Of a stretch of 64,000 nt of DNA, positions 11,483-64,000 are shown in pieces. Within the stretch, counting starts at the first letter, position 1. Each line of letters starts with the position of its first letter. Source of the DNA: a virus (taxonomy: Duplodnaviria; Heunggongvirae; Uroviricota; Caudoviricetes). The stretch lies in IMG/VR virus record IMGVR_UViG_3300032038_000006; one strand, 5' to 3'. Below the pieces are notes generated by a model. The model ran no database searches. It was not told the DNA's origin and saw only the letters and a program-made list of their open reading frames with translations. Made by a program: the position numbers and the translations under genes.

Positions 11483-11486
11483 TCTA

Positions 11487-11517: not shown

Positions 11518-11534
11518 GACTTTTTTTCTGATTT
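11506..11534 (+). promoter_or_regulatory. sigma70-like promoter
   Basis: TTGACT n17 TATAAT. Confidence 0.65.
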
Positions 11535-11565
11535 ATAGTATAATATTTATATCAAAGGTGATAAA

Positions 11566-11790: not shown

Positions 11791-11792
11791 AT

Positions 11793-12698: not shown

Positions 12699-12740
12699 AA
12701 GATTATAATTCCCAAAGGCAATTTTTACCTTATATAAGAA

Positions 12741-12768
12741 GGGTATCTTCGGATACCCTAATTTATTT
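12741..12768 (+). terminator. rho-independent terminator
   Basis: GGGTATC-TTCG-GATACCC followed by a T-rich run. Confidence 0.55.
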
Positions 12769-12783
12769 ATAGGGGGAATTTTA

Positions 12784-13308: not shown

Positions 13309-13320
13309 TAGCTTTGAGGG

Positions 13321-13350
13321 GTTCGAAAGAATCCCTCTTTCTTTTTCTTG
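13321..13350 (+). terminator. rho-independent terminator
   Basis: GAGGG..CCCTC followed by a T-run. Confidence 0.55.
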
Positions 13351-13376
13351 ACTTTTTAATTTTTCTGTGATATAAT
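13348..13376 (+). promoter_or_regulatory. sigma70-like promoter
   Basis: TTGACT n17 TATAAT, TGn. Confidence 0.65.
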
Positions 13377-13407
13377 AATTATATAATCAGAAAGGAGGGA
13401 AAAGTCA

Positions 13408-14001
13408 ATGAAGAAACCAATAGTTGTAAACCTATTTGCTGGTCCTGGCGCAGGAAAATCTACTGCGGCGGCTTATATCTTTAGTTAGTTAAAGATGAAG
13501 GGAGTAAATTGTGAGCTGATAACAGAGTTCGCAAAAGATAAAACTTGGGAGAAGAACTATTCCGCATTAAGATGTTAGGAATATGTTTTCGGCAAACAGT
13601 CCTATAAAATGGACAGATGCCGCGACCAAGTAGATGTTATCATCACAGATAGCCCATTGCCGCTCGGAGTATTTTATAATCAGAATCCAGTCTTGGGACA
13701 GCATTATGAACATTTAGTAATGGATGTGTTTAATACTTATGATAACATTAACTATTTTATCAATCGAAAAAAGCCTTACAATCCTGTTGGCAGAAATCAG
13801 ACAGAGGAAGAAGCAAAAGAGATTGATGTCAGAATAAAGAAGTTCCTTTAGGTCCATGATATTCCTTATTGGATAAAAGATGGAACTGAAGCAGGATATA
13901 CAGACATTTGTAATGACGTGTTGGATTATATCCATAAAGCACAAACAAAAGAATGGCTAAGCAATGAATATGATAAATTTGCGACAGAATATTACGATTA
14001 A
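13408..14001 (+). CDS. P-loop NTPase/kinase (dNMP-kinase-like); in-frame TAG at 13486, 13576, 13849
   Basis: RBS AAAGGAGGG. GPGAGKST Walker A. Continuous only if TAG is sense. Confidence 0.5.
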
Positions 14002-15723: not shown

Positions 15724-15797
15724 TTCCCCATCGTCTAATGGTAGGACGCTTGCCTTTGAAGCAAAGAATAGGGGTTCGACTCCCTTTGGGGAAACCA
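15724..15797 (+). tRNA. tRNA-Gln(TTG)
   Basis: Cloverleaf; T-loop TTCGACT; CCA encoded. Confidence 0.8.
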
Positions 15798-15854
15798 ATA
15801 TCATAATGGTCTGGCATAGCCATCTTGAAAGTATGCCCCTTTCCTTTCTTTAAT

Positions 15855-15930
15855 GGGACGTTAGTACAATGGTTAGTGCCCTCGGCTCATAACCGAGCTT
15901 ATCTGAGTTCGAATCTCAGGCGTCCCACCA
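15855..15930 (+). tRNA. tRNA-Met/Ile2(CAT)
   Basis: Anticodon loop CTCATAA. Confidence 0.8.
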
Positions 15931-15943
15931 GTAAGTTAATAAT

Positions 15944-16021
15944 GTGCCTGTAGTTCAGTTGGCATAGAACACCTGACTTTTAATCAGGGGGTCATGGGTT
16001 CGAGTCCCATCAGGCACACCA
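15944..16021 (+). tRNA. tRNA-Lys(TTT)
   Basis: Loop CTTTTAA. Confidence 0.8.
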
Positions 16022-16161
16022 AACTAAGATGCTATCAGCAATTATATGACAAGTCCAACCCTGCAGAACGACGGTTCGACTCCTCGGCGGCGCGCCATTT
16101 ATATGCGTCGTTAGTTTAACGGTAGAATGGCGGGTACGTCAAACAAAAGCATCTTGATAAT

Positions 16162-16255
16162 GCGGTCGTAAGCCTAATTTGGTAAGGCAGCGGTTTGCTA
16201 AACCGTGAGTAATCGAGCAATCGGTGTGGGAGTTCGAGTCTCCCCGACCGCGCCA
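16162..16255 (+). tRNA. tRNA-Ser(GCT), type II
   Basis: Loop TTGCTAA; long variable arm. Confidence 0.7.
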
Positions 16256-16609
16256 TAATGATTTCTTAAAAGTAATTTTGAGGTCTGGATTTTTTACCGC
16301 AATGTTAGTCAGAATTAAATGAGGAAACGCGGCTCTATCAAAATTACTGTTAAGAGGTCATTATGACCTTTACCCGCTGTGCGGGGTCGTAGAAATACGA
16401 TAGCTCATCCACCACGTGTGGAAAGAGTTCCTTAGTACGTTATGCTTTTCGTATAGCGTTCTATGATTATTGCCGCCCATCTCGGGGCGTGCCCCTTCTC
16501 CATGGTAGCCCTCTTGTGTGGGAGTAAATCACGATGTGACTGTGGATATAATACGAGGATTGACGTACAAGCAAGGGTCCTTATTTAAAAAGCAAAGAGG
16601 TGAAACACA

Positions 16610-16873
16610 ATGAAGAAGGCTATTTTAGCTTGTCTTATGGCAGGCGCTATGGCTGTAACTTTTGTTTCTTGCGATACATCAAAGGATAGCGGAAGCAACA
16701 GTGAAACCACAACAGTAGTTACAACAGAAGTTGAAACAACAGAAGCTGAAACAACTGAAGCTACAACAGTAGCAGAGGAGACAACTGAGGCTACCGAAGA
16801 AACAACTACTACCACAGAAACTGAGGCAGAAGAGACTACAACAGAGACAACTACAACAACTGCTGTAGCTTAA
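16610..16873 (+). CDS. lipoprotein with Thr/Glu-rich (TTE) repeats
   Basis: Signal peptide plus lipobox FVSC; RBS AAAGAGGTG. Confidence 0.5.
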   Translation: MKKAILACLMAGAMAVTFVSCDTSKDSGSNSETTTVVTTEVETTEAETTEATTVAEETTEATEETTTTTETEAEETTTETTTTTAVA

Positions 16874-16888
16874 TAAGCACTCAAAGAT

Positions 16889-16917
16889 TTGACAATTTTT
16901 ATAAAATATGTTATAAT
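16889..16917 (+). promoter_or_regulatory. sigma70-like promoter upstream of the suppressor tRNAs
   Basis: TTGACA n17 TATAAT. Confidence 0.65.
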
Positions 16918-17014
16918 TATTTTATAAGAATGAAAGACGCATTCAGCTATCATTTCTTACAATAGAACACTTAAAATGTTTAAAAGGTAAATGTAAAAGC
17001 GTCTTGGAGAATTT

Positions 17015-17090
17015 TGCCGCTTCGTTTAGTTGGCGAGGACAACGGACTCTAACTCCGTCTTACTGGGTTCGATTCCCAGAGCGGCAACCA
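17015..17090 (+). tRNA. tRNA-Sup(CTA) amber suppressor no. 1
   Basis: Anticodon stem ACGGA/TCCGT; loop CTCTAAC; type I; A73. Confidence 0.7.
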
Positions 17091-17093
17091 TAA

Positions 17094-17170
17094 TTCTCCG
17101 TCGTCAAGAGGCTTAAGACAGCAGTCTCTAAAACTGCCACTCCTTGGTTCGAATCCAAGCGGAGAAACCA
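17094..17170 (+). tRNA. tRNA-Sup(CTA) amber suppressor no. 2 (acceptor TTCTCCG resembles the phage tRNA-Gln genes)
   Basis: Anticodon stem GCAGT/ACTGC; loop CTCTAAA. Confidence 0.75.
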
Positions 17171-17194
17171 ACGTCTTGAAAGGAGGTCTGTCCG

Positions 17195-17320
17195 ATGCAG
17201 TACCTAATAGTTGTTTGTGTAACTGTGTTTCTTTGGAAGCTCATAGAAGTTATGCCAGACATCATCGCCGCAACCCATGACAAGAAGAAGACAGACCCCT
17301 ACAAAGACAATCATTATTAA
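17195..17320 (+). CDS. small membrane peptide (41 aa)
   Basis: RBS AAAGGAGG plus ATG. Confidence 0.3.
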   Translation: MQYLIVVCVTVFLWKLIEVMPDIIAATHDKKKTDPYKDNHY

Positions 17321-17324
17321 AAAT

Positions 17325-17353
17325 TTGACTTTTTTCTTTAGATATGATATAAT
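17325..17353 (+). promoter_or_regulatory. sigma70-like promoter
   Basis: TTGACT n17 TATAAT. Confidence 0.65.
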
Positions 17354-17382
17354 ATTTATGTACTTAAAAAATAACAAACAAT

Positions 17383-17457
17383 GTGGGATTCGTATAACGG
17401 TTAGTATTCCTGTCTTCCAAACAGGCGATGGGAGTTCGATTCTCCTATCCCACACCA
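17383..17457 (+). tRNA. tRNA-Gly(TCC)
   Basis: Loop CTTCCAA. Confidence 0.8.
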
Positions 17458-18180
17458 GTGCCATTATTTAATGGCATTGTAACTTAAATGTTACTGGTTG
17501 CGGCGAGACTTGTCAAGGAAAAGACGTTAAAACCCCACGAGGAAGTGGTTTAAATTCCCTTTACACCCTCGCTGAGAGAAAGCGAATCACCAAATATTCT
17601 CTACAGTTGAGTTGAGGTTTACTCATTGGACTGTTTAAAACCACAAAAACCAAATTGGGCAGAGACCCATCACAGACCTGCCCGACTGTGTGATGGCAGT
17701 ATAAATCCGTGTATTGGCTGGCACGGCAGCGGTTACGTACATTACCGTGAGTACGATAGGCACGCAATGTCCATTCGGGGAAGTACCGATAAAATTACGA
17801 CATCTACTGCTGACGATGTAAAAGGGAAAATTTCTTGGTTATGAACATACCTAAATCAAGTGGTTAAGCGGCGCGTTTACTGCGTTAGTGTGGGAACCTG
17901 ACGACATTACAATGGTCCATAACTTGTGTTGGTTATGGCGGCGATTAGAATAGTCGCCCGTTGTCACGGCAAATTATTCACATAGCTACAGCTCAGTGGC
18001 TTTATAACTAATGAGATTAGGTTGAAATTCCTTTCAGCAACTGGCGATGGAGGGGTTCGAGTACCCTGTCTCCTGTGTGCAGGAGATGTGGCGGCACCCA
18101 AGATTGTTGAAGAAATACTCTCAATTAAGTCGACCTTCACGTGGTGAGAGTGCTTGCGAAATGACTTAGAAATCAAAAAT

Positions 18181-18209
18181 TTGACATTTTTTATAATTTA
18201 TGTTATAAT
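18181..18209 (+). promoter_or_regulatory. sigma70-like promoter
   Basis: TTGACA n17 TATAAT. Confidence 0.65.
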
Positions 18210-18230
18210 AATTATAGAAAATAAAGAGAA

Positions 18231-18304
18231 CGCGCGGTGGTGCAAAGGTAGCATAACGGAGTCATTATCCGTTGATATAGGTTCGAGTCCTGTCTGCGCA
18301 ACCA
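18231..18304 (+). tRNA. initiator-like tRNA-fMet(CAT)
   Basis: C1xA72 mismatch; CGCGCGG...CTGCGCAACCA; loop GTCATTA. Confidence 0.6.
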
Positions 18305-18360
18305 AATAAAGATGTGTCAGCAACTTTTTCTTTAAAATTTTAACGCCGCTATTTTAAATT

Positions 18361-18435
18361 CCTCTCGGCGTTATGGTGTAATCTGGTAGCACAGCCCCAA
18401 AAAGGGGACGGTAAGGTTCAAATCCTATGAGAGGT
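18361..18435 (+). tRNA. degenerate tRNA-like element (anticodon region CCCCAAAAAGGGG)
   Basis: Acceptor CCTCTCG/TGAGAGG and a T-loop TTCAAAT, but no canonical anticodon arm. Confidence 0.3.
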
Positions 18436-18455
18436 AAAAGCACATCTTGATAAAT

Positions 18456-18532
18456 CGCGCCATCTTCTAACAGGTGTAGGAAGTAGCCCTTTCAAGGCTA
18501 AAATGCGAGTTCGAGCCTCGCTGGCGTGACCA
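18456..18532 (+). tRNA. tRNA-Glu(TTC)
   Basis: Loop CTTTCAA. Confidence 0.75.
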
Positions 18533-18652
18533 TTAAGATATATCAGCAACTCACTTTTGTAGGTTCAATTCCTATCTCCCCAACCAATTATATTGGGGAG
18601 ACTGCCCCGCGGTAAAAGGGGTTATATCTTGTAGCCTATTTAATAGGCTTAT

Positions 18653-18729
18653 CGGCGAGTAGCGCAACAGGCAGAGGCAATGGACTTAAAATCCATTCAG
18701 TGTGGGTTCGAATCCCATCTCGCCGACCA
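18653..18729 (+). tRNA. tRNA with anticodon TAA (Leu-decoding) in a type I body
   Basis: Stem ATGGA/TCCAT; loop CTTAAAA; A73. Confidence 0.55.
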
Positions 18730-18807
18730 TGGGGCATTAAGTGCGTGATAATTTTGGTGATTGGTTATCTTGTAGCGCCCCTAAAATCACCATTTAAATC
18801 GGGGATT

Positions 18808-18884
18808 AGCTCAGTTTGGTAGAGCGCTCGCCTTGGGAGCGAGAGGCCGTGGGTTCGAGTCCCGCATCTCCGACCAGATAAGAC
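18808..18884 (+). tRNA. tRNA-Pro(TGG)
   Basis: Loop CTTGGGA. Confidence 0.8.
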
Positions 18885-18944
18885 TCAGCAGCAACTCTGA
18901 AAGTTTTTTGGGCATATAAAAACACAAGATGAGTCTTGATAAAT

Positions 18945-19031
18945 CGGCGTGTGGCGGAATTGGCAGACGCGCCAGCCTAAGGAGCTGGTGTCCTTCGGGA
19001 CGTGTGGGTTCGAGTCCCACCATGCCGACCA
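18945..19031 (+). tRNA. tRNA-Leu(AAG), type II
   Basis: Loop CTAAGGA; variable arm GTCC-TTCG-GGAC. Confidence 0.65.
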
Positions 19032-19187
19032 GAGAATACGTGCGACCACATATAGCGGTCTGTGGTGCCGCGGCACGTATTATCACCACTAAGACAGTCC
19101 AGCAATTCTTTAAAAGCATTTGAATTTTAATCAAAAGGTAGCTAACATAACTGTCTTGAATATTTGAATATAAAGGAGAGATTAACC

Positions 19188-19706
19188 GTGATTACCGAGA
19201 AGATATTTACTCGTGGTAATGGTGAGAAGGTTCGTTATTCACAGATAGGCTCTATTGTAGCCGACTACATCGCAAAGGCACCTAATGCCTCATACGAAAT
19301 AACTGTGGGTACAGATAGCCAGAACCACAAGTGCACAAGAATGGTGGAAGTAATTGCTGTTCACCGTATCGGTGATGGCGGCATTTTCTTCTATCGCAAG
19401 CAAGATATACCAAAGATAAGAGTTCTTAAGACTAAGATACAGGAAGAGACTTCTCGTTCTATTGAGAACGCAACAGGTTTCGTAGACGCTCTTGCTTATG
19501 CTCTTATCGACTATGATATTGACCTTGAGCAAATGTCTAATGACGGAAGATTTACTTTCGCTGTCCACGCTGACATTGGTCACGCAGGTAAGACAAATCA
19601 GCTTATTACTGAGATTACCTCTTGGATTAAGACTTGTGGCTTCGAGGTTGCTATCAAGCCAGATAGCTACGCTGCATCTGGTATCGCAAACAGAATTACA
19701 AAGTAA
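19188..19706 (+). CDS. hypothetical protein (GTG start) inside the tRNA array
   Basis: RBS GGAGAG. Confidence 0.45.
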   Translation: MITEKIFTRGNGEKVRYSQIGSIVADYIAKAPNASYEITVGTDSQNHKCTRMVEVIAVHRIGDGGIFFYRKQDIPKIRVLKTKIQEETSRSIENATGFVDALAYALIDYDIDLEQMSNDGRFTFAVHADIGHAGKTNQLITEITSWIKTCGFEVAIKPDSYAASGIANRITK

Positions 19707-19846
19707 CGAATATCGAGGGAAGGGCATAGTAAATTAAATACTGAGATAGTAGAAATACGTAGCGAAGGTGCTTAATTTACGCTGGTAAGGAAAGTAAGTA
19801 GTGGGTTGCCTATATTCGTTATCATAAATTTTCGGAGGGCGGCACA

Positions 19847-20077
19847 ATGGAAAGAGATAGAGCATACTATCGTTATCAGAGAAGACAACACATAGCTCGC
19901 AAGAGACATATCATTGATGAAACTCATCATTGGTTTTGTGATTGCGACGGAAAGTTAGCCAAAGGTAAAATTCATTGTTCCTGCTGGATGTGTGCCTTCA
20001 ATCATCCTAAGAGTGGCTGGAAGCAGGTTACATATTCCGATATGAAAAGAATTGAAAAGCTTGATTACTCTGAATAG
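19847..20077 (+). CDS. small Cys/His-rich (zinc-binding) protein
   Basis: RBS GGAGGG. Confidence 0.4.
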   Translation: MERDRAYYRYQRRQHIARKRHIIDETHHWFCDCDGKLAKGKIHCSCWMCAFNHPKSGWKQVTYSDMKRIEKLDYSE

Positions 20078-20181
20078 GAGTATCTGGCTGCTTAATAGGG
20101 ACTACACGTTGTTCTTGTAGTTTAAAAGAAGGAAAGAGTCGCTCTCTTGAAATCAAAGGATACGCCCAACCCTATTTCAAT

Positions 20182-51044: not shown

Positions 51045-51119
51045 GCCCTCGTCGTTCAACGGATAGGATATATGGCTACGAACCACAAGATGAAAGTTCG
51101 ATTCTTTCCGAGGGTGCCA
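51045..51119 (+). tRNA. tRNA-Arg(ACG)
   Basis: Loop CTACGAA. Confidence 0.7.
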
Positions 51120-51121
51120 AT

Positions 51122-51197
51122 GCTGACGTAGCACAATTGGTGGTGCAATTGATTAGTAATCAATAGGCTGAGGGTTCGAGTCCCTCCGTTAGCCCCA
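51122..51197 (+). tRNA. tRNA-Thr(AGT)
   Basis: Loop TTAGTAA; A34. Confidence 0.6.
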
Positions 51198-51220
51198 ATA
51201 ATTCCAAAGCAATTAAAAAT

Positions 51221-51249
51221 TTGACTTTTTCTAAAAAATATGATATAAT
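51221..51249 (+). promoter_or_regulatory. sigma70-like promoter within tRNA array 2
   Basis: TTGACT n17 TATAAT. Confidence 0.65.
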
Positions 51250-51296
51250 ATTTATAGAAAAGTTGAGAAAGACAATTAAAGAAATTGGTGTTCTGT

Positions 51297-51390
51297 GGAG
51301 ATACTGTAGCCAAAAGGTAAGGCGGCGGACTGCAACTCCGTGAACAGGGCAATCCCCTTCCTGTCGGTTCGACTCCGACCAGTATCTCCA
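51297..51390 (+). tRNA. tRNA-like with anticodon GCA (Cys) and a roughly 20-nt variable region; no encoded CCA
   Basis: Acceptor GGAGATA/TATCTCC; loop CTGCAAC. Confidence 0.4.
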
Positions 51391-51408
51391 GAGAACATCA
51401 ATACAAAT

Positions 51409-51484
51409 GCTCCTGTAGCACAATAGGTAGTGCAGGTCCCTTGTAAGGACAAGGTTGCAGGTTCGATTCCTGTCGGGAGCCCCA
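51409..51484 (+). tRNA. tRNA-Thr(TGT)
   Basis: Loop CTTGTAA. Confidence 0.75.
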
Positions 51485-51740
51485 TACGGTGTGGTTAGCC
51501 GAGTAGTAACCTTGGATTTGTCCTTGCCAAGCATAAAACGGACACCTTAGAAGGGTTAGATGGTTAAATCCTTGTCCCGTAGTGAGAGTAGGTCGGATAT
51601 AGACTCTCCCTCGTCAGCAGAGTAGGAGCTGGCATCTACCGTTGCAGGTGTAGGGTAACGGGGTGAGTAGTTGGCAAGCTTAACAAACCAACTCGGAGTA
51701 ATCTTACTTCGTTAGGGAGTGGTACTGCTCCCTAAGATAT

Positions 51741-51818
51741 CGGGCATTGACGCAATTGGTTTAGCGTAACTGACTCTTAATCAGTAAGTTTGGGGTTCGA
51801 GTCCCCGATGCCCGACCA
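51741..51818 (+). tRNA. tRNA-Lys(CTT)
   Basis: Loop CTCTTAA. Confidence 0.75.
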
Positions 51819-51843
51819 ATAATCTTCAATAACAAATAAAAAT

Positions 51844-51872
51844 TTGACTTTTTTTAGAAAATATGATATAAT
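51844..51872 (+). promoter_or_regulatory. sigma70-like promoter within tRNA array 2
   Basis: TTGACT n17 TATAAT. Confidence 0.65.
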
Positions 51873-51901
51873 ATTTATAGAAAAGGTCAAGAGAGAAAAA
51901 C

Positions 51902-51978
51902 AATTTTAAATGGGAGAATAGCTCTAACGGTTAGAGCGGCGAGCTGTTAACTCGATGGTTGTGGGTTCGAATCCCTCC
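51902..51978 (+). tRNA. tRNA-Asn(GTT)
   Basis: Loop CTGTTAA. Confidence 0.65.
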
Positions 51979-51981
51979 TCT

Positions 51982-52067
51982 CCCGCCAAATGGGTCGGTA
52001 GCCTAACGGTTAGGCAGGCGGCTGTTAACCGTCGGAATTTATTTCCTATGCAGGTTCGAATCCTGTC
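51982..52067 (+). tRNA. tRNA-Asn(GTT)-like with extended variable region
   Basis: Loop CTGTTAA; 86 nt. Confidence 0.45.
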
Positions 52068-52195
52068 CGTCCCGCCAAAAACGAAAATTGTGGTAGCTTA
52101 ATAGTCATATGGTAAACGCTACAAGAGGGTGTGGATAACGTCACAGCGACTGCACTGGAGCGACACCTCTGTCCGCTTAATCGCTCCAATTAAAT

Positions 52196-52272
52196 GGTGC
52201 CGTAGTTCAATAGAGTAGAGCACTGGACTGTCACTCCAGAGGTTGCGGGTTCGAGTCCCGTCGGTATCGCCA
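52196..52272 (+). tRNA. tRNA-Asp(GTC)
   Basis: Loop CTGTCAC. Confidence 0.7.
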
Positions 52273-52361
52273 AAGGCTCGATTAAGAACAAAAGAGGTTA
52301 CGAGAGGAACAAAAATAATAACCCATATGTCGTGCGGCAAGACGTTAATTGCCACCAAAAT

Positions 52362-52436
52362 GGTTCTGTCGATTAACTGGTTAAGTCAGTAGCCTGTCAC
52401 GCTACAGTTACGGGTTCGAGTCCCGTCGGAATCGCC
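52362..52436 (+). tRNA. tRNA-Asp(GTC) second copy
   Basis: Loop CTGTCAC. Confidence 0.7.
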
Positions 52437-52440
52437 AAAT

Positions 52441-52514
52441 GTGGGATTAGTTTAGTGGTAAAATACCAGTTTGCCATACTGGTGTCGAGGGTTCAATTCC
52501 CTTATCCCACACCA
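52441..52514 (+). tRNA. tRNA-Gly(GCC)
   Basis: Loop TTGCCAT. Confidence 0.8.
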
Positions 52515-52517
52515 AAT

Positions 52518-52594
52518 GCCGTCGTAGCTCAGCTGGTTAGAGCACTCGGCTGATAACCGAGAGGTCGGAGGTTCGAGTCCTCTCGGCGGCACCA
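52518..52594 (+). tRNA. tRNA-Ile(GAT)
   Basis: Loop CTGATAA. Confidence 0.8.
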
Positions 52595-52609
52595 ATAGCA
52601 GAAAAGAAT

Positions 52610-52638
52610 TTGACTTTTTCTATAAAATATGGTATAAT
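52610..52638 (+). promoter_or_regulatory. sigma70-like promoter within tRNA array 2
   Basis: TTGACT n17 TATAAT. Confidence 0.65.
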
Positions 52639-52766
52639 ATTTATAGAAAATGAGAAAGAGATTAAAAACTTCAAAGATATGAAGCAACTCTGGGCGTTCC
52701 TGAAAAACGGACAGTATCTTTGAGAGCGGATAAGGGTTTTATGAGTTTTACCTCTCTGCAAATAAT

Positions 52767-52845
52767 GGGCTTTGGGACTGCAAGGGGTGGTCACCTGTTT
52801 TGCAAACAGGAAAACAGATGGGTTCGATTCCCATAAGGTCCACCA
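52767..52845 (+). tRNA. tRNA-Ala(TGC) with G3:U70
   Basis: Loop TTTGCAA; G3·U70 wobble present. Confidence 0.7.
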
Positions 52846-53011
52846 AGGTGCATAGGGTCCGCTACCTTAAACCCTACGAAGCGTTAACATGGATTTACGG
52901 TTTCAACTACCACTGGCAGACAATCAGCGATTTATCAATGAGCGTCAGATATGTGGCTTTGTGGCAAACGCTCCGTTACCAAATAAGAAGGCAAAGTAAA
53001 ACCGAACTAAT

Positions 53012-53087
53012 GGCGGCATCGACAAGTGGTCTAAGTCACCAGCCTTTCACGCTGGAGTCACGGGTTCGAATCCCGTTGCCGTCACCA
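53012..53087 (+). tRNA. tRNA-Glu(TTC) second copy
   Basis: Loop CTTTCAC. Confidence 0.7.
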
Positions 53088-53115
53088 TTTCCGAAAGGAA
53101 AAGGAAAAGAAAAAT

Positions 53116-53144
53116 TTGACTTTTTTAAAAAAATATGGTATAAT
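53116..53144 (+). promoter_or_regulatory. sigma70-like promoter
   Basis: TTGACT n17 TATAAT. Confidence 0.65.
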
Positions 53145-53222
53145 ATTTATAGAAAAGGTCAAGAAAACCAATTCAAAAAAATTAAATGATGACGTGCTAA
53201 GGCACAGAAAGTGAGGGCTATT

Positions 53223-53639
53223 ATGGCTAACGAGAAGATGACAATGAGAACATTCCTTAACGGTGTACTTGCTACAGAGGGTCTTGCAGAGGACCTTGCA
53301 ACTTACGCTAAGGCTGAGCTTACAAAGCTCGACGAGAAGAACGAGAAGAGACGTAACTCTCTTACTCCTGCACAGGCTGAGAACGAGGCTCTTAAGGCTA
53401 AGTTCGTTGCTGAGGCAAACGCAGAGACTGCTTACGCTGCATCTGCTGTCGCTGAGATGCTTGGTGTTTCCACACAGAAGGCATCTGCTCTTATGAGAGC
53501 ACTTAAGGCTGACGGTGTTGTTGCAGAGGGCGAGGCAAAGTCTGCAACTGGTAAGGGTAAGGTTAAGACTTACACTCTCACAGGTGTAGAGTTCGTTTCT
53601 AAGGCTCCTGCTAAGGCTGAGGCTGAGGCAGAGGGCTGA
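53223..53639 (+). CDS. small Ala/Lys-rich probable DNA-binding protein with host-like codon usage
   Basis: RBS GTGAGGG plus ATG; HTH-like AEMLGVSTQKASALMRALK. Confidence 0.45.
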   Translation: MANEKMTMRTFLNGVLATEGLAEDLATYAKAELTKLDEKNEKRRNSLTPAQAENEALKAKFVAEANAETAYAASAVAEMLGVSTQKASALMRALKADGVVAEGEAKSATGKGKVKTYTLTGVEFVSKAPAKAEAEAEG

Positions 53640-53692
53640 TAACCCTTCAAACTGAAACATTCGCGGCGGGGCAATGACCTCGCCGTAGAAAT

Positions 53693-53770
53693 CGCGGCAT
53701 AGTGGAACTGGTTTAACACGCCACCCTCTCAAGGTGGAGAGTCGGGGTTCGAGTCCCCGTGCCGTGACCA
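53693..53770 (+). tRNA. tRNA-Glu(CTC)
   Basis: Loop CTCTCAA. Confidence 0.65.
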
Positions 53771-53994
53771 TTAAATCTTGAACTATTAGAGACGTGGTTC
53801 GTGACCTTGATTTATCAAGGTAGGAAGGTTCGATTCCTTCAGGGAGTAAGGTGCAGTTCGAGTCTGCAAATAGTTTTAAGTTGTTACGGAGAGCCACGGC
53901 TGCTCAAGATATTCGCCATCAGCTGTAAAGCGAGTATTAGACCAAGTACATAACTTGGAGAGTGAGGTAACTATCCGCTACTCACTTATTAAAT

Positions 53995-54083
53995 CGGCAG
54001 GTAGCACGTAATTGGTAGCGTCGCGGGCTGTAACCCCGTTGCCCTTAGGGGTCTTGAAGGTTCGAGTCCTTCCCTGCCGACCA
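53995..54083 (+). tRNA. tRNA-Tyr(GTA), type II
   Basis: Loop CTGTAAC; long variable arm. Confidence 0.75.
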
Positions 54084-54089
54084 ATTTAA

Positions 54090-54163
54090 TTCCCTTTCGT
54101 CTAATGGTAGGACGCCTGTCTCTGAAACAGATAATGTAGGTTCGACTCCTGCAAGGGAAACCA
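54090..54163 (+). tRNA. tRNA-Gln(CTG)
   Basis: Loop CTCTGAA; body matches Gln(TTG). Confidence 0.75.
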
Positions 54164-54468
54164 AAAGTTGAATACCAGTCTCAACTTTAAAATAAAGGGA
54201 AACATATGGGGCGCGGCACCTCTAAGTGGTCGTAGTTTTTGAGTCGGTGTGCTAAGAACTGACTTCGGGTGTTCTGGACGTGATGCAGAAATAGTGCTGG
54301 TAGAAGGACCAGATAACTTGTTTAGGAGTGAGTAACCTATTCCCTACCGTGTCTTTAGGTAAAAAGATGCCGTGGCAATTACGGAGTATGTCGTCGCTGA
54401 GCCTCAGACGTAAAATTGACTTGGACAGCCTTCCCGAAGGGGTTGCAAACCTTTCAATAGGCACATAT

Positions 54469-54545
54469 TGCGGGGTGGAGCAGTCTGGTAGCTCGCAAGA
54501 TTCATTATCTTGAGGTCGTTGGTTCAAATCCTTCTCCCGCAACCA
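54469..54545 (+). tRNA. tRNA(CAT), fMet-like body but T1-A72 paired
   Basis: Loop TTCATTA; D-arm identical to E. coli fMet. Confidence 0.55.
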
Positions 54546-54548
54546 AAT

Positions 54549-54623
54549 GCCCCTATAGCATAACGGAGAGTGCACGCGCCTTCTAAGCGTGTGATGTAGG
54601 TTCGATTCCTACTGGGGGTGCCA
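54549..54623 (+). tRNA. tRNA-Arg(TCT)
   Basis: Loop CTTCTAA. Confidence 0.75.
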
Positions 54624-54628
54624 TTAAT

Positions 54629-54704
54629 ACTCGCATAACTCAATTGGTAGAGTGCTTCCTTGACGTGGAAGAAGTTGTCAGTTCAAGTCTGGCTGTGAGT
54701 ACCA
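54629..54704 (+). tRNA. tRNA-Val(GAC)
   Basis: Loop TTGACGT. Confidence 0.7.
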
Positions 54705-54880
54705 TTAGGATTACCGCTTATTCTTTAAAAGTACGCCCAAACTTTTTGAAGTTGCAACCTTGTCGAAAAGGGAAGACTAAGCTAAGCGGCGGAGATGAAT
54801 GGTCTCCGTAAATAAATCATATCGTATACGCAAGATATTGAATGACTTATGCTTAACTCGTTAAAAGAAGCATTGGAAAT

Positions 54881-54958
54881 GCCTGTGTAGCTCAGATGGT
54901 TTAGAGTGTGCGCCTCATAAGCGTAAGGTCGTGGGTTCGATGCCCGCCACAGGCACCA
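54881..54958 (+). tRNA. tRNA-Met/Ile2(CAT)
   Basis: Loop CTCATAA. Confidence 0.75.
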
Positions 54959-55179
54959 TTCGTTTGGAAGCGTCGTGAATAAACTTCCCCTGCGGCACAG
55001 GGACACTGAGCACCGTATTTGGTAGTTTCTTTTAAGTTAAGGAAATTATCTGTCGGAACGCCATATCAGTTGCGTTTAAGTACTGCTACTTACTAAGCGG
55101 CGTGAACGGAATCCCACGAGACGGCGATTGACCGAGCTGACAAGCAGCTTCTGGAATATGAAAGTAGTGCGTACGGCTA

Positions 55180-55255
55180 CCTTGTTAATGGGCTCGTAGC
55201 TCAATTGGGAGAGCGCCTGCCTTGCAAGCAGGAGGTCGAGGGTTCGACTCCCTTC
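55180..55255 (+). tRNA. tRNA-Ala(TGC) second copy, G3:U70
   Basis: Loop CTTGCAA. Confidence 0.8.
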
Positions 55256-55362
55256 GAGTCCACCAATAAAGATAGGTACAGCAAACCAAAATGGTTAAAG
55301 ATTTTTGTTTTGAGAAAAATTGAAGTGGTTCAAATCCACAAAGTATAACCTATCTTGATAAT

Positions 55363-55438
55363 GCCTCGGAAGCTAACTCGGTAGAAGCGGCGGACTGAAA
55401 ATCCGCAGGAACTGGTTCGACACCAGTCTGGGGCACCA
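55363..55438 (+). tRNA. tRNA-Phe(GAA) second copy
   Basis: Loop CTGAAAA. Confidence 0.7.
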
Positions 55439-59439: not shown

Positions 59440-59516
59440 GTGGTTATGATGCAACTGGCAGACATCTTCGGCTAAGAACCGAAGTCTTGAGAGTTCGAAT
59501 CTCTCTAACCGCACCA
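59440..59516 (+). tRNA. tRNA with anticodon AAG in a type I body
   Basis: Stem CTTCGG/CCGAAG; loop CTAAGAA. Confidence 0.5.
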
Positions 59517-59518
59517 AT

Positions 59519-59593
59519 GTCTCAGTCGTTCAACGGATAGGACAGTGACCTCCTAAGTCGCTGATGTGGGTTCGATTCCCGCTTGGGACACCA
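59519..59593 (+). tRNA. tRNA-Arg(CCT)
   Basis: Loop CTCCTAA. Confidence 0.7.
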
Positions 59594-59602
59594 ATAAAAA
59601 AT

Positions 59603-59631
59603 TTGACATTTTTTATAAAATATGATATAAT
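59603..59631 (+). promoter_or_regulatory. sigma70-like promoter
   Basis: TTGACA n17 TATAAT. Confidence 0.65.
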
Positions 59632-59727
59632 ATATATAGAAAATGAGAGATAAGAAAAAAAACAAAAATCTCATTTCTATGCGGCTGAGCTGTTAGCAAA
59701 GAGGTTCGTCGCCAAACAGCTATTAAT

Positions 59728-59803
59728 CGGTGTGAAGCTCAATTGGCTGAGCAGCTGACTCTTAATCAGTAGGGTGTGGGTTCGAGTCCCATCACACCGA
59801 CCA
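59728..59803 (+). tRNA. tRNA-Lys(CTT) second copy
   Basis: Loop CTCTTAA. Confidence 0.7.
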
Positions 59804-60092
59804 ATCTTCTGGAGCGACAGGAAGTAAAAATCAGGTCGGCGGCTCTTCTTCGGGGTGCCTTAAAATACGAAGAAACGCAAACTCCGCTGGCGTTGTAAAA
59901 GGGGACACGCAGTTGTTATCTGCCTTCGCGGTATAGTTATCCGTAGGGAATGTTCTTCGCCCTGACTGACCTTCGAAAGGTAAGCGGTTGGCATACGAGA
60001 TGTGCCCGTTCATCCCCCACCGAGTGAGAACGTGAAACTAATAATGGGGTTGCTGAGCCGTCAGCAATGAGGTTGGTCGCCAACGGTATTAA

Positions 60093-60167
60093 TCGCCCCT
60101 TAGGCAAGTGGTTAAGCCGTCAGATTCTCAGTCTGAAGACGAGGGTTCGACTCCCTCAGGGGTGACC
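60093..60167 (+). tRNA. tRNA-Glu(CTC) second copy
   Basis: Loop TTCTCAG. Confidence 0.55.
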
Positions 60168-60519
60168 AGCAAGACTCCATAACAGCAAACCAGAGAGGAA
60201 ACTCATAGCAAGTCAGAGCCATAGCGGGGCGGCAGGAGAGCAAACGGTATTAGTTCCTGCTTGCTAAACTCTTAGCTGATGATACCGATGGAGCAGGTCT
60301 TATCCTTGGCACCTAAAGAGCAAAGGACGGAATGCGTCGCTCGAAACCGCGACCGCAACCGAGTGTTTGCGATTAAAGAACAGGTACCACTGGCAGAAGG
60401 GGCATCATAAGTCCTTTAATAAGGCGAAAGTAATTCCAGTGATGTCGGTGCCCTGTTCACACTCATTAATATTTTTAATTTATTCACAAAAAATTTACAG
60501 AATATTCACAAAAAAATAC

Positions 60520-60548
60520 TTGATTTTTTTCAAAAAATATGTTATAAT
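60520..60548 (+). promoter_or_regulatory. sigma70-like promoter (-35 TTGATT) preceded by two TTCACAAAAAA direct repeats
   Basis: TTGATT n17 TATAAT. Confidence 0.55.
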
Positions 60549-60580
60549 ATATATAGAAAAAAAATAAAAAAGAAATAAAT

Positions 60581-60672
60581 GTCGAGGTCACTCAGTGGGG
60601 AAGAGTAACAGTCCAGAAAACTGTCGCTCCTCGAAAGGGGAGCTGAGGGTTCGAATCCCTCTCTCGACGCCA
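60581..60672 (+). tRNA. tRNA-Ser(AGA), type II
   Basis: Loop CCAGAAA; long variable arm; A34. Confidence 0.6.
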
Positions 60673-60738: not shown

Positions 60739-61134
60739 ATGAGTATAATGCATTTTGAAGTATCAAAGGATATGACACCCACCAAAATCAAGAACGCGGC
60801 TAAGGCTCGACTTCAGGAACTTTTCATTGAGTTTCTTAAGAATGAGTTCGGCGATGAGAACGTTGCAATGATACAGACAGGCACAGCAACATCTCCTAAG
60901 AGAGAAATCGGCTTCATCTGTGGTGACGTTAAGCTTGAGAACGGCGAAATCGTTCCTCTTGTAGCTTCTGATAATCCTACTTGCAAGGAGTTCAATGAGC
61001 ACAAGACAGATAAGGGTAAGTTCGTTCCTGCGTTCGACTTCGGTGCGGCATCTGATGCTTATGCAGCTTGGGCTGCAGGCAAGGCAGAGAAGGAAGCCGA
61101 GAAGGAAGCAAATAAGGCAAAGAACGCTAAGTGA
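60739..61134 (+). CDS. abundant-looking hypothetical protein (host-type codon usage)
   Basis: RBS GGAGAAACGAGG plus ATG. Confidence 0.45.
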   Translation: MSIMHFEVSKDMTPTKIKNAAKARLQELFIEFLKNEFGDENVAMIQTGTATSPKREIGFICGDVKLENGEIVPLVASDNPTCKEFNEHKTDKGKFVPAFDFGAASDAYAAWAAGKAEKEAEKEANKAKNAK

Positions 61135-61224
61135 TGCGGGGAGGGCTTTAGGAGCGAACCTCATTAAAAACTCCTATTAACATATAAAGTTATTAACCTG
61201 TTCCATTTGAGAGGAGAATGCTTA

Positions 61225-61362
61225 ATGGCTAAAAGAAACATCAATCAGTTCGTAACCCTCACAGCTTCCAGTAAGACTGTTGAGAAGTGGGATAATGAAG
61301 TTCGCAAGGCGGCTTCGGAAAAGCGTAAGGCTTCTCCCAAAGGCGAGAAAGGTAAGAGGTGA
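61225..61362 (+). CDS. small basic protein
   Basis: RBS GAGGAGAA. Confidence 0.3.
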   Translation: MAKRNINQFVTLTASSKTVEKWDNEVRKAASEKRKASPKGEKGKR

Positions 61363-61432
61363 GCATAATGCTCACCATTAATTCGCCACCGTAAAATCAG
61401 CGTCGCGGCACAGCCGCAGGAAAGAGGTTAAA

Positions 61433-61792
61433 ATGGAAAATGAAAAGACAGTAATCGACTTCACTGGTATGTCCACCTCTCAGGTCTACAAAGAGGTCCG
61501 TAAGAGACTTACAGAGGACTTCCTCGAATTTATGTCTCAGAAGTATGAGAGAGCAGTTCGTCTCAGCAATACAGAAGTTGCTGTTGTCCTCGGTTTTATA
61601 AACGACGAGGACGGTTTCCCTCACGATGTCTGCGGTATCTGTAAGGCACAGTCTAAAGCTTACTACTCTAAGGATACTGATGACAAGGGTAATGCTCTCA
61701 AGAGAGAGGTTAAGGAATTTAACATTGACGATGAGCTTGATGCCGCAATCCTTGAGACAAAGGCAAATCAGAAGGGCGTTCCTAAGAAGTAA
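61433..61792 (+). CDS. hypothetical protein
   Basis: RBS; followed by a terminator. Confidence 0.45.
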   Translation: MENEKTVIDFTGMSTSQVYKEVRKRLTEDFLEFMSQKYERAVRLSNTEVAVVLGFINDEDGFPHDVCGICKAQSKAYYSKDTDDKGNALKREVKEFNIDDELDAAILETKANQKGVPKK

Positions 61793-61810
61793 CAAACAAT
61801 GATATGAATA

Positions 61811-61840
61811 GCGGGGCGGTACAATCCGCCCTTTCTTGCT
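61811..61840 (+). terminator. rho-independent terminator
   Basis: GGGCGG..CCGCCC followed by a T-rich run. Confidence 0.55.
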
Positions 61841-61851
61841 CTAATAAAAAT

Positions 61852-61880
61852 TTGACTTTCAATATAAATTATGGTATAAT
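61852..61880 (+). promoter_or_regulatory. sigma70-like promoter
   Basis: TTGACT n17 TATAAT. Confidence 0.65.
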
Positions 61881-61904
61881 ATATATAGAAAGTTAAGGAA
61901 AGGA

Positions 61905-62264
61905 ATGATGTTAATGTTAACAGCAACACAGATAGTAGAGATGGTAAGTACCTTATATACTGACCACGGCGAAACAATTTCAATCGACAGCGATGAAGAC
62001 CTCTCCACTTACTTCGATACTGAAATAATTACTCTTATCGAAAGCGGTGAGTTAAAGCCTGACTATTCTTATGGCAATTGCGTAGAGTACACAGTAGAGT
62101 CAATCTGCTATGCTCTTTGCGACAAGTACGGCTATAATGTTAAGGACTACGCTGAAGATAATGTCTTCGAGAGCCCTGGCTTAGACGTTCACGTTATGAG
62201 CGTCGCCATTGATGACGAAACAGAAGTCATCACATCATTCCACAATGTGTACTACTGGGGGTAA
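61905..62264 (+). CDS. hypothetical protein
   Basis: RBS AAGGAAAGGA. Confidence 0.4.
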   Translation: MMLMLTATQIVEMVSTLYTDHGETISIDSDEDLSTYFDTEIITLIESGELKPDYSYGNCVEYTVESICYALCDKYGYNVKDYAEDNVFESPGLDVHVMSVAIDDETEVITSFHNVYYWG

Positions 62265-62268
62265 GAAA

Positions 62269-62451
62269 ATGGAAGAGCGTTATTGTGAAGTAATGGGACG
62301 CAGCCGTGAGTATCCTGACGAAGATGTAATTCTTCTCTTTAGCGGCTCCGAAAGCGAATGTGAAGCCTATTTCCTTCGTAACGGGGGCGTTTATCAGGAA
62401 GGCACAATGGTCTATGATATGGAAATATGGGAAGTAGAGGAGGACGTCTAA
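62269..62451 (+). CDS. small hypothetical protein
   Basis: ORF. Confidence 0.35.
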   Translation: MEERYCEVMGRSREYPDEDVILLFSGSESECEAYFLRNGGVYQEGTMVYDMEIWEVEEDV

Positions 62452-62798
62452 TGGAAAGAACAGTATATATGGTATCAAAAGTCCAGAACGGATATATCGA
62501 CGGTCACACTTATAAGGTCTTCGTAGACTATAAGCGTGCGGTCACAGAATTCAAGTCCTTGCTCGGCGAAGTAATGCTTGAGAGCTTCAGAGAAAACCCT
62601 ACCGATGGAAACATTTGGGACGTACTTACTCACTGGTACGATATGACAATGATAAGTTCTTTCGGTGATGTCGAGACAGCTGACATAAAAATCCCTCTTG
62701 ACTCTCAGGAGTTCAAGAACACATACGGAGGCTGTATAGTCGTATGGCTTTCCGATGAGGATTACTTCCAGCTCAGAGCAATCGAGGAGGTATCCTAA
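62451..62798 (+). CDS. hypothetical protein
   Basis: ORF. Confidence 0.4.
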   Translation: MERTVYMVSKVQNGYIDGHTYKVFVDYKRAVTEFKSLLGEVMLESFRENPTDGNIWDVLTHWYDMTMISSFGDVETADIKIPLDSQEFKNTYGGCIVVWLSDEDYFQLRAIEEVS

Positions 62799-63313
62799 TG
62801 GAAAAAGTCTGGATAGTTGATGACGAATATGGTCACGCTATAAAGGTCTTCTACGACGAGGAAAACGTAATCGAATATATCTTATCTCGTATATATGACG
62901 ACGCTGATGGTAAGGTTGATGACTTCTTAACAGAGAAGGAAGCCCTTTACTGCTCCTATGACGAATATTATAAGGGCGGCACAAACTCCTTTGGTACTGA
63001 AATCTATACAGCAACTCTAATGGAGGTGTCAGACAGTGACGCTAATCGAGAAGATGAAGTTAATACTGAAAACGAATACGGAGCCAGAACTACTACTATC
63101 AGACGAGGAACTCCAAACTTACCAACGACTCTCAGGCGCTCCCGCCGTCAGACGTTTTTACAACTCGCCACGACAAAGGGAACTTTGTCTGTACCTGTTT
63201 CTTTTGGAAAGAGCAATAAGCGAGATGCAGATAGCGGAGAAAGCAAACGAAGCGGTAACCGAGTCCCTAAAGTACGAGCTGCAAACGCTCAAAACGGAAA
63301 ACGCCGTCCTTAA
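62798..63313 (+). CDS. hypothetical protein; the 3' third overlaps 63036..63383 and is probably not genuinely coding to its end
   Basis: ORF extended by the lack of TAG stops. Confidence 0.35.
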   Translation: MEKVWIVDDEYGHAIKVFYDEENVIEYILSRIYDDADGKVDDFLTEKEALYCSYDEYYKGGTNSFGTEIYTATLMEVSDSDANREDEVNTENEYGARTTTIRRGTPNLPTTLRRSRRQTFLQLATTKGTLSVPVSFGKSNKRDADSGESKRSGNRVPKVRAANAQNGKRRP

Positions 63314-63383
63314 ACGCCAGTTACAACACTACGAACAAATGGCAGGGCGGCACGAAGAAGACTTCAACTCACAATTTGATTAA
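63036..63383 (+). CDS. coiled-coil hypothetical protein (GTG start, GGAGGTG RBS)
   Basis: RBS 7 nt upstream of GTG. Confidence 0.4.
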   Translation: MTLIEKMKLILKTNTEPELLLSDEELQTYQRLSGAPAVRRFYNSPRQRELCLYLFLLERAISEMQIAEKANEAVTESLKYELQTLKTENAVLKRQLQHYEQMAGRHEEDFNSQFD

Positions 63384-63388
63384 AACTT

Positions 63389-63432
63389 AAGGAGGGCGGC
63401 ACCAAGACCACGGCGTTTGTCCTCCTTTATTA
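63389..63432 (+). terminator. rho-independent terminator before the terminal repeat array
   Basis: AAGGAGG..CCTCCTT followed by a T-rich run. Confidence 0.5.
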
Positions 63433-63579
63433 TAATTATATCATTATAATTATACGGGGTCTGAAAATTTTATAAGGACCTATATACTCCCAACACTTAA
63501 ATAACGATTAAGGGAGAACTATTATATATAATTATAATATTAATATAATAATATAATTATAATAATATAATTATAATAA

Positions 63580-64000
63580 TAGGGGAGTCTATAATTTTTA
63601 AATAATAAAGAAACCAATAGCAGACAGCGAATCCAGTATAAGGGGAGCATTACATTGAACGATTAGGAAGAACAATATAATTAAATATTATAATAAAATA
63701 GCAGATAGACAGCAGAACAATAAGGGGAGCTATACTAAAGGATTAGAAAAGGGGAGCCAAACCTAAAAATTATCAGAGGGCGGCACAACAATTAAGGAAA
63801 GAAAAGAGACGTCAGTAAAGGGAGAGTAATAAAAGGGGAGCAATATAATTATATAATAATAATAATAGGGGAGCAGTAAAAGAGAAATAGTAAAAGGGGA
63901 GCAATAACTGGGAAGCCTATAAAAGGGGAGCCTATAATCTTAAATTATAAAAAGGGGAGGGGTAATTGCCCCAATAATAAGGGGAGCCTATAATAATCCC
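63580..64000 (+). repeat. AT-rich array of about 11 direct repeats with core AAGGGGAGC, several followed by CTATAAT, phased at 28-29 bp in the last six copies; no ORF
   Basis: Copies near 63583, 63641, 63723, 63751, 63834, 63866, 63895, 63924, 63953, 63981. Confidence 0.6.

Follow-up and report, generated by a model that had tools for sequence, protein, structure and literature searches.

The window analysed here, a stretch of 64,000 nucleotides from a tailed phage (Caudoviricetes; IMG/VR record IMGVR_UViG_3300032038_000006), ends in a non-coding array of short direct repeats that is kept in related phages and lies close to the point at which two gene blocks on opposite strands converge. Tentatively, we propose that a protein binds to these reiterated units and that the region has to do with the genome end, packaging or a terminus. 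The window is part of the contig k141_101128 (ENA assembly ERZ27256903, 180,954 bp), window positions being record positions minus 13,943, and about 102 kb of this contig (record 5.9-86.2 kb plus 147.6-169.3 kb) were scanned. A terminal array of repeats had been pointed out at 63440-64000 in an initial annotation of the same DNA and is confirmed, the array being real and non-coding. Its components are the following.

63582..63994, + strand: the repeat array, with 11 cores GGG(G/A)A(G/A) and the consensus aatAAaA-GGGGAGC-c-tataat, from repeat analysis and reading of the sequence.
63616-63627 and 63697-63708, + strand: two copies of AATAGCAGAYAG (repeat family D13), marking a larger duplication of 82 nt in the array.
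63954..63972, + strand: a small hairpin inside the array, GGGG-TAATTG-CCCC, suggestive only.

The 11 cores start at 63582, 63642, 63724, 63751, 63835, 63868, 63896, 63910, 63925, 63954 and 63981, all on the + strand, and two degenerate cores are found at 63512 and 63819, in agreement with the figure of about 11 repeats given at first. The exact core AAGGGGAGC is present eight times on the + strand of the window and never on the other, seven of these copies within 63640-63987 and the eighth inside a tRNA-Ser at 60635. Within 63440-64000 GGGGAG occurs 10 times, whereas 2000 dinucleotide shuffles give 0.61 +/- 0.74 (4 at most); GGGGAGC is present 8 times, with 0.10 expected from such shuffles. 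The base period of the array is 14-15 nt by Tandem Repeats Finder (TRF). The 28-29-bp phasing described originally does not hold as the basic period but survives as a double unit, represented by the 27-33 nt spacings among the last copies. Overall, the spacings are of 14, 15 and 27-33 nt plus wider gaps of 60-84, the 5' half being loose and carrying the 82-nt duplication, and the dense 3' half extending from 63817 to 63994. The core had also been said to be followed often by CTATAAT. Actually, a perfect TATAAT comes after the core in only four units (63582, 63835, 63925 and 63981) and no perfect box is present in the remaining ones, two of which have a near version (TATACT or TATAAA). The array is complete within the window, since its last unit ends at 63994 and there are 0 further copies in the next 8 kb of the parent contig. 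The stretch had rightly been described as AT-rich and free of open reading frames (ORFs): 63440-64000 has 30% GC (A 258, C 60, G 111, T 132), no ORF of at least 40 aa is found in the window beyond 63383, and the longest + strand open run in the array stretch, with TAG read as sense, is of 45 codons.

Relatives were found through the neighbouring exonuclease (IMG/VR) and through the 268-aa protein encoded after the array (protein collection, JGI metagenomes). They form four lineages, namely the window phage with L085 and L086; L089/L090; L080 with L081 and L091; and L084. A fifth lineage is L079/L092. The intergenic region of ~0.9 kb is collinear across the four lineages while the adjacent 268-aa protein is just 30-51% identical between them, indicating that the layout is under selection. 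In order, this layout comprises a terminator with GGGCGGCAC, the GGGGTCTGAAAATTTT...CCAACACTTA block, the A/T tract with its TATAAT units, loose repeats in which CCAGCAGAAC is duplicated, GGCGGCAC followed after 25-30 nt by ACGCCAGT, dense repeats and a conserved leader (CCTAC..GTCGTGGGC, TGCCTGCGCAC, AAAAGTCAAATATTT), and then the gene. In the window the elements that accompany the array are these.

63344..63353, + strand: a copy of AGGGCGGCAC in the 3' end of the last ORF (repeat family D10).
63389..63427, + strand: a terminator-like hairpin AAGGAGGGC ... GTCCTCCTT as read from sequence, which closes the upstream operon and contains GGGCGGCAC.
63455..63519, + strand: a conserved unique block GGGGTCTGAAAATTTT ... 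CCAACACTTAAATAACGA, then the first degenerate core AAGGGAGAAC, from the four-lineage alignment.
63520..63581, no strand: a tract of 62 bp made up solely of A and T, in TATAAT/ATTATA units with a period of 14 nt, partly palindromic.
63777..63816, + strand: an embedded element, GGGCGGCAC, 22 nt and ACGTCAGT, from sequence reading and alignment with relatives.

At the position of the hairpin, L080, L081 and L084 have clean intrinsic terminators with GGGCGGCAC in the stem. In the unique block, the columns invariant in the four-lineage alignment are GAAAATTTT and CC.ACACTTA.A.AA. The AATAGCAGAYAG pair corresponds in the alignment to the CCAGCAGAAC x2 element of L080, L081 and L084, and the relatives' version of the embedded element (GGCGGCAC, 25-30 nt, ACGCCAGT) stands at an equal relative position in L089, L091/L081 and L084. 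Even the small hairpin at 63954..63972 has counterparts, GGGGG/CCCCC in L085, GGGG/CCTT in L086 and GAGGG/CCCTC in L089.

Each lineage has an array core of its own, which is uniform across a genome: GGGGAGC(C), GGGGAGTA, GGAGCCGA and GGGGAAGC. The corresponding units are AAGGGGAGC(C)TATAAT, TAATAAGGGGAGTA, RGGAGCCGA..TATAAT and GGGGAAGC(C)TAT, the part common to the four lineages being AAGG(A/G)G, with the lineage-specific part coming after it. All the units counted in seven loci (85/85) share one orientation. Among phages related at 97%, the 5' half of the array is nearly invariant, and the dense 3' half varies in the number and order of units. A uniform core specific for each lineage together with a changing number of units is the behaviour of binding-site arrays for a co-evolving factor. 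Lack of conservation in related phages had been named initially, along with a lack of termini or a replication signal at the site, as what would undo the case for the repeats; the conservation was checked, and the array layout is kept in the four lineages. The same comparison makes it highly improbable that the array is a neutral satellite, i.e. functionless, slippage-prone DNA in a recombination-tolerant intergenic gap. Copy number and order do differ between near-identical phages, and unequal crossing-over alone can give homogeneity within a genome. However, the array, its orientation, the G-run core and the embedded unique motifs are all kept in lineages whose neighbouring protein has diverged as far as stated above, a distance at which neutral non-coding DNA would be unrecognisable.

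Several kinds of polarity change next to the array. GC skew goes from +0.14 to -0.10 across a junction to its right, and at this junction, ~1 kb past the array, two promoter-dense gene blocks on opposite strands converge. The window genes are all on the + strand; past the 268-aa gene there are a canonical early promoter, a second array and a bidirectional terminator, and then genes on the - strand. In addition, the 8-mer GGCGGCAC occurs in the window 22 times on the + strand and 2 times on the - strand, where 3.0 are expected, its copies falling in two coding phases as well as outside coding DNA (positions e.g. 246, 522, 2686 ... 63346, 63395, 63779). The extra sites that had been reported in or near the array are real and correspond to the last three of these, which fall within 450 bp; the AGGGCGGCAC copies at 63344, 63393 and 63777 are the densest cluster of this polar 8-mer in the window. 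On either side of the junction GGCGGCAC is directed towards it: in six partly redundant loci the counts are 39:3 for the left side and 4:17 for the right. The loci looked at besides the window were L098, L099-L101, L080, L086, L089 and L091. In the replication module (record 147-169 kb) GGCGGCAC is antisense to the genes (0:3, 0:5 and 0:3), and its polarity is therefore not simply a product of transcription.

As transcription, GC skew and GGCGGCAC all converge near the array, its position is the one expected for genome ends, a concatemer junction or a replication terminus. Chi and KOPS are polar bacterial motifs whose flip pattern marks the terminus or physical DNA ends, not the origin, and we assume by analogy that GGCGGCAC behaves like a motif of this type belonging to the host. 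The array would thus be a cis-acting DNA element of 11-13 same-orientation units of 14-15 bp with the core AAGGGGAGC, which may serve as sites for a sequence-specific and lineage-specific phage protein. The row of units is laid beside the 62-bp A/T tract, which would be easily melted or bent, and a nucleoprotein complex would assemble on the array for recognition of the genome end or for packaging, in a mode that could resemble the T7 short-repeat arrays by the terminal repeat or the small-terminase boxes of a pac site. Reiterated sites in non-coding, bendable DNA, as in pac/cos or terminal-repeat regions, are indeed what the array presents. In favour of this reading are also a 3.1-kb gap in the canonical promoters around the array, flanked by the two converging blocks, and the second conserved array ~1 kb to the right. 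Of the three roles suggested in the initial annotation, the packaging or pac-adjacent one would fit the position of the array best.

There are also points that weigh against a genome-end or packaging site. No terminase was seen in the ~102 kb of contig examined, and the structural (tail-like, recoded) genes lie ~60-70 kb upstream of the array; terminase genes need not, though, be close by in large phages that have terminal repeats. Assembly runs through the locus without a break both in the 181-kb contig and in several relatives. A protein that binds the units was not found, the neighbouring 268-aa protein could be placed in no family, and the likeness of GGCGGCAC to Chi or KOPS is assumed. 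Furthermore, the strict strand bias, the purine richness (0.62) and the Shine-Dalgarno-like core also fit a function at the RNA level, and an A/T tract of this kind would be just as typical of an origin.

A replication origin, with the units as iterons for a phage initiator and the 62-bp A/T tract as unwinding element, had been another of the initial suggestions and appears rather unlikely to us. The tract, present in all five lineages compared, is the longest A/T-only run in 72 kb, and the least stable 100-bp segment of the same 72 kb lies there (free energy, dG, of -91.6 versus a mean of -129.5, standard deviation 8.8); by TRF it has 4.2 copies of a period of 14, and it includes the inverted repeats I5-I13. 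Direct repeats with lineage-specific cores and a variable copy number would also agree with iterons. In L079/L092, moreover, the A/T tract is directly before the gene, the array after the tract has decayed to GTAGTA repeats, and a cassette of 17-22-bp-period repeats (iterons in this reading) with an HTH_36 Rep-like gene is inserted at the same locus, before the array of CAGCTCAC repeats. The Rep-like gene of L079 matches Pfam HTH_36 (E 1.4e-4) and PHROG 270 'replication initiation protein' (E 1e-4), and in another phage of the clade relatives of it, preceded by these same repeats, are found in a replication module, where they lie between PhoH and DnaB. The cassette is mobile-looking, with an AT-rich stretch, GGAA/TTCC, the 17-22-bp-period repeats and the HTH_36 Rep-like gene, and was located at L079 12700-14330 (minus strand), L095 5700-6537 and L097 5650-6468.

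The most telling evidence against an origin is that the locus is a point of convergence, not divergence, of transcription, GC skew and GGCGGCAC. Besides, the 14-15/28-29-bp spacing is out of helical phase, unlike the 17-22-bp repeats of iteron origins, and the conserved core is of only ~9 nt. A DnaA-box search found none, no initiator-like gene (Rep, DnaA or DnaD family), and so no cognate initiator, is found among the 73 ORFs of the window plus flank, and the contig is without a homologue of the L079 Rep. The replication module (record 147-169 kb), which contains a double helix-turn-helix protein, DnaB, primase, RecJ and DnaE, is 70-90 kb away, and both the motif and an A/T run are missing from it. 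What the iteron proposal keeps in its favour is the A/T tract as an adjacent AT-rich unwinding element, the lineage-specific cores and the L079 cassette. The idea of an R-loop primer was rejected, G being just 20% of the region and its runs short.

The third initial suggestion, an array of promoters, either of a host type with only a -10 box or for a phage-specific sigma factor or RNA polymerase, that would drive the downstream late gene, is disfavoured and we hold it to be very unlikely. The phage has its own recognisable promoters: 37 near-identical ones on the + strand of the window (1854 ... 61852; aaaaaTTGACTTTTTTtATAaAaTATGaTATAATatatatagaaaa, TTGACT-17-TGnTATAAT), ~1 per 1.7 kb and 0 on the - strand, another at L004 13099 heading the second array, and ten on the - strand of the block to the right of the junction. 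Several of those on the + strand carry a fused hairpin, AAAGTCAAAG..CTTTGACTTT, which extends into the -35 element. Around the array there is a 3.1-kb promoter-free gap, from 61852 to the promoter of the second array. For the downstream gene no other promoter is recognisable, four units have a perfect TATAAT right after the core, and the last unit reads TTGCCC-17-TATAAT (10/12 matches). However, the strict 45-bp architecture shared by the 37 canonical promoters is absent from the array, whose units are without a -35 element and TG extension. Scored for -35 and -10 boxes at 16-18 bp, as expected for sigma-70/sigma-A and as in the phage's own promoters, only the last unit comes out. The units of L089 have no TATAAT, nor has the final unit in L085 and L086, which are 97%-related phages, and a spacing of 14-29 bp between units bars independent occupancy. 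Nor does the motif recur as a phage promoter would, since the core is upstream of no other gene in the ~102 kb, a stretch that takes in the replication module and the recoded late genes (these have promoters of canonical type), and GGGGAGC is absent from its intergenic DNA outside the array. The search for a phage sigma factor or RNA polymerase that had been advised was run on the 73 ORFs of window and flank, and none was seen.

The array might also act at the RNA level, transcribed from the A/T tract as a long, purine-rich and unstructured 5' leader of the 268-aa gene or as a separate non-coding RNA, which we consider rather unlikely. In this reading each unit would be a Shine-Dalgarno (SD) mimic without start codon that binds the 30S subunit, the whole being a multi-copy stabiliser of the STAB-SD/polypurine kind or a sponge for ribosomes or for a C-rich small RNA (sRNA). 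All units share the strand of the gene that follows, and purines make up 58-63% of the + strand. The motif A(A/G)GGGAG is a real ribosome-binding site at the genes 9418, 13498, 40661 and 57810, and the common AAGG(A/G)G is the part of the core complementary to the anti-SD. The array comes after a terminator and is separated from the gene by no canonical promoter and no terminator, the array RNA is predicted to be unstructured (z -0.64), and in L079/L092 the A/T tract is still directly upstream of the gene. An ATG 9-26 nt downstream is found for 0/22 of the SD-like positions in or beside the array (63506-64006) versus 475/1022 elsewhere. There is also a precedent, in that SD sequences without start codon, including the polypurine of phage SP82, stabilise Bacillus mRNAs, as summarised in PMC7509114 and in references given in PMC3997798.

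An anti-SD-complementary purine tract without start codon, as in STAB-SD, is thus present, though the depletion of ATG is not strand-specific: ATG occurs 7 times in the arrays versus 14.8 expected, and CAT (i.e. ATG on the other strand) 8 versus 18.0, a symmetric depletion that indicates no strand-specific avoidance of start codons, and the test for it is therefore negative. To our knowledge, 11-20 copies of an SD-like sequence are without precedent. Also unfavourable to an RNA element are that no conserved promoter is evident, that the L079 lineage expresses the gene without the array, that the downstream leader has one compensatory pair only, and that the predicted pairing with the anti-SD is moderate for most units (~-8.4 kcal/mol), in an energy scan too coarse to rank the array. 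That an array RNA with 11-20 SD mimics acts in trans or cis, as a 30S or C-rich-sRNA sponge or as a multi-copy, ribosome-loaded stabiliser, is quite unlikely. If true, such an RNA would help this TAG-recoded phage, with its 46 tRNAs and transfer-messenger RNA (tmRNA), to reprogramme or time the translation of the late recoded genes, and an array that acts as RNA would be a new kind of phage translation-control element.

The leader between array and gene has ~168-170 nt (L004 12090-12257, equivalent to 63994-64161) and is followed by a strong ribosome-binding site. It is the best-conserved non-coding stretch between lineages with the protein only 51% identical (cf. L089 2655-2846), and its hairpin differs by lineage (GGGACATTTCCAT/ATGGAAAGCCCC versus GGACGTT/AACGTCC). 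It may form a regulatory RNA structure. The 268-aa gene itself (L004 12258-13064) contains 7 in-frame TAGs, and its orthologues in L080, L081 and L084 have 0. The protein gave no match in Pfam, PHROG, NCBIfam or PDB, nor against annotated phages by tblastn, and its AlphaFold model, from an alignment of 2 sequences, is unusable (predicted local distance difference test, pLDDT, of 33).

Further features of the contig are listed below.

L004 13099-13632 (65003-65536 in window numbering): the second conserved non-coding unit, with 10 x CAGCTCAC on one strand.
Window 15724-21371, 51045-55438 and 59440-60672: three tRNA clusters (46 tRNAs).
Window 17015-17170: two tRNA(CUA) genes.
Window 47800-48143: tmRNA (tag ADYAIAA).

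The second array lies ~1 kb to the right of the first, so that the two flank the 268-aa gene. Besides CAGCTCAC it holds four GTTAAA(N)TTTAAC palindromes and two GGCCCGGG repeats; it is nearly invariant in all five lineages, has a folding z of -1.5 and gave no match against Rfam. It could be a non-coding RNA or a site of cos/pac/ori type. A fork trap (Ter) made of the first array and the reverse complement of the second (GTGAGCTG) with one binder was rejected, the second array being invariant across lineages and the first one changing. With Rfam 15, only the tRNAs and the tmRNA were matched in the window, and on L004 11300-13700 nothing at E<=1 save two matches at chance level.

The window carries two tRNA(CUA) suppressors along with the other tRNAs and the tmRNA. 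The large tail-like genes just upstream of it (L098 1-8104, record 5859-13962) have TAG in frame as many as 21 times, TAA and TGA never, indicating that the late genes are TAG-recoded; most window genes are without in-frame TAG. The arm with the tRNAs also has genes of RNA-repair type, whose products are two RNA ligases, a kinase/HD protein, a Ro-like protein (DUF2828/vWA) and one with a Macro domain. Just before the intergenic region two long ORFs, 62798-63313 and 63036-63383, overlap in different frames. The frame-2 product of this overlap looks like a genuine coiled-coil protein with an orthologue in L089, and the tail of the frame-1 ORF resembles an out-of-frame translation; a mis-call or a frameshift might account for the overlap, as might an indel in the assembly.

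No annotated phage is close to the window phage: megablast of 61000-64000 against the INPHARED phages gave no match, and the phage Phass-1 (code 15 clade, PMC10607447) is a distant relative only, its non-coding gaps not being homologous. Exact-pattern scans of IMG/VR for the array unit and the window end gave chance matches or none, and a paired-core scan (AAGGGGAGC-N10-40-AAGGGGAGC) 74 loci, all unrelated (e.g. collagen-like coding repeats). A DnaB search retrieved 967 proteins (E <= 1e-5), and contigs that encode the best of them reach ~190 kb. The window phage is a member of a large, uncultured clade with TAG recoding of late genes, whose phages have ~150-190 kb and come from rumen, gut and digester samples. 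For this abundant clade the main value of the array would be as a landmark for genome ends and replication, and the junction, with two conserved arrays flanking a recoded gene, is the best candidate for such a cis-acting landmark (ends, packaging site or terminus).

Among known systems with repeats, clustered regularly interspaced short palindromic repeats (CRISPR) and type III toxin-antitoxin (ToxI-like) loci also have same-strand direct repeats upstream of a gene. The repeats had been judged too short for CRISPR, and indeed the units, of 14-15 nt, are degenerate and irregularly spaced, unlike the near-identical 23-47-nt repeats of CRISPR, with no unique spacers and no cas genes. Type III toxin-antitoxin loci have repeats of ~34-45 nt, a terminator and a gene of the ToxN/CptN/TenpN family, whereas here there are neither near-identical 34-36-nt repeats, as in ToxI, nor a toxin of the ToxN family. 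The injection-stop signal of T5 is a non-coding region rich in repeats and palindromes at the border of the terminal repeat. The array region resembles it in that direct repeats and palindromes are densely mixed with AT-rich DNA, in an extended non-coding gap at a gene-block boundary of a large virulent phage. The sequences themselves are not similar, however, DnaA boxes are absent, and nothing here points to a terminal-repeat border. With STAB-SD (cryIIIA) and the SP82 polypurine 5' stabiliser, as these are summarised in PMC3997798 and PMC7509114 (Agaisse & Lereclus 1996; Hue et al. 1995), the array has in common a purine-rich SD-like sequence without start codon on the sense strand of the downstream gene. 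Those are single elements near a mapped 5' end, unlike the 11-20 copies over ~450 nt found here, of which transcription would be putative.

The array has direct, replicon-specific repeats beside an easily melted AT-rich tract like iteron-type origins, and a gene flanked by two repeat arrays like P1 and F. Iteron-type origins, for which there are reviews (PMC4980987, PMC5043065), are represented by lambda ori, P1 incC-repA-incA and SaPI ori. The array differs from them in a spacing that is no multiple of the helical repeat, in having no adjoining initiator and no DnaA boxes, in its place at a convergence of polarity, and in the different cores of the two flanking arrays. In T7, arrays of short repeats (SRL/SRR) flank the terminal repeat, and in SPP1 pacL/pacR reiterated boxes for the small terminase lie upstream of gene 1. 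Like them, the array consists of about a dozen short repeats in the same orientation within a few hundred non-coding, AT-rich bp, adjoins the expected genome ends or concatemer junction, and keeps its arrangement, not its repeat sequence, in relatives. Unlike them, it has its end position deduced from sequence and no terminase gene nearby, and a recoded gene and a second array stand between it and the strand switch; neither its unit, of 14-15 bp with a G-run core, nor its group of phages (~181 kb, TAG-recoded, with Firmicutes-type signals) is related to theirs. The array is thus not assignable to the T7-type, pac or iteron class, because the features that define these classes are either not present or beyond what the nucleotides can tell. 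By analogy, it may be described as a cis-acting repeat array of a large phage, new in form, to which the T7 arrays, the pac boxes and the iteron origins come closest.

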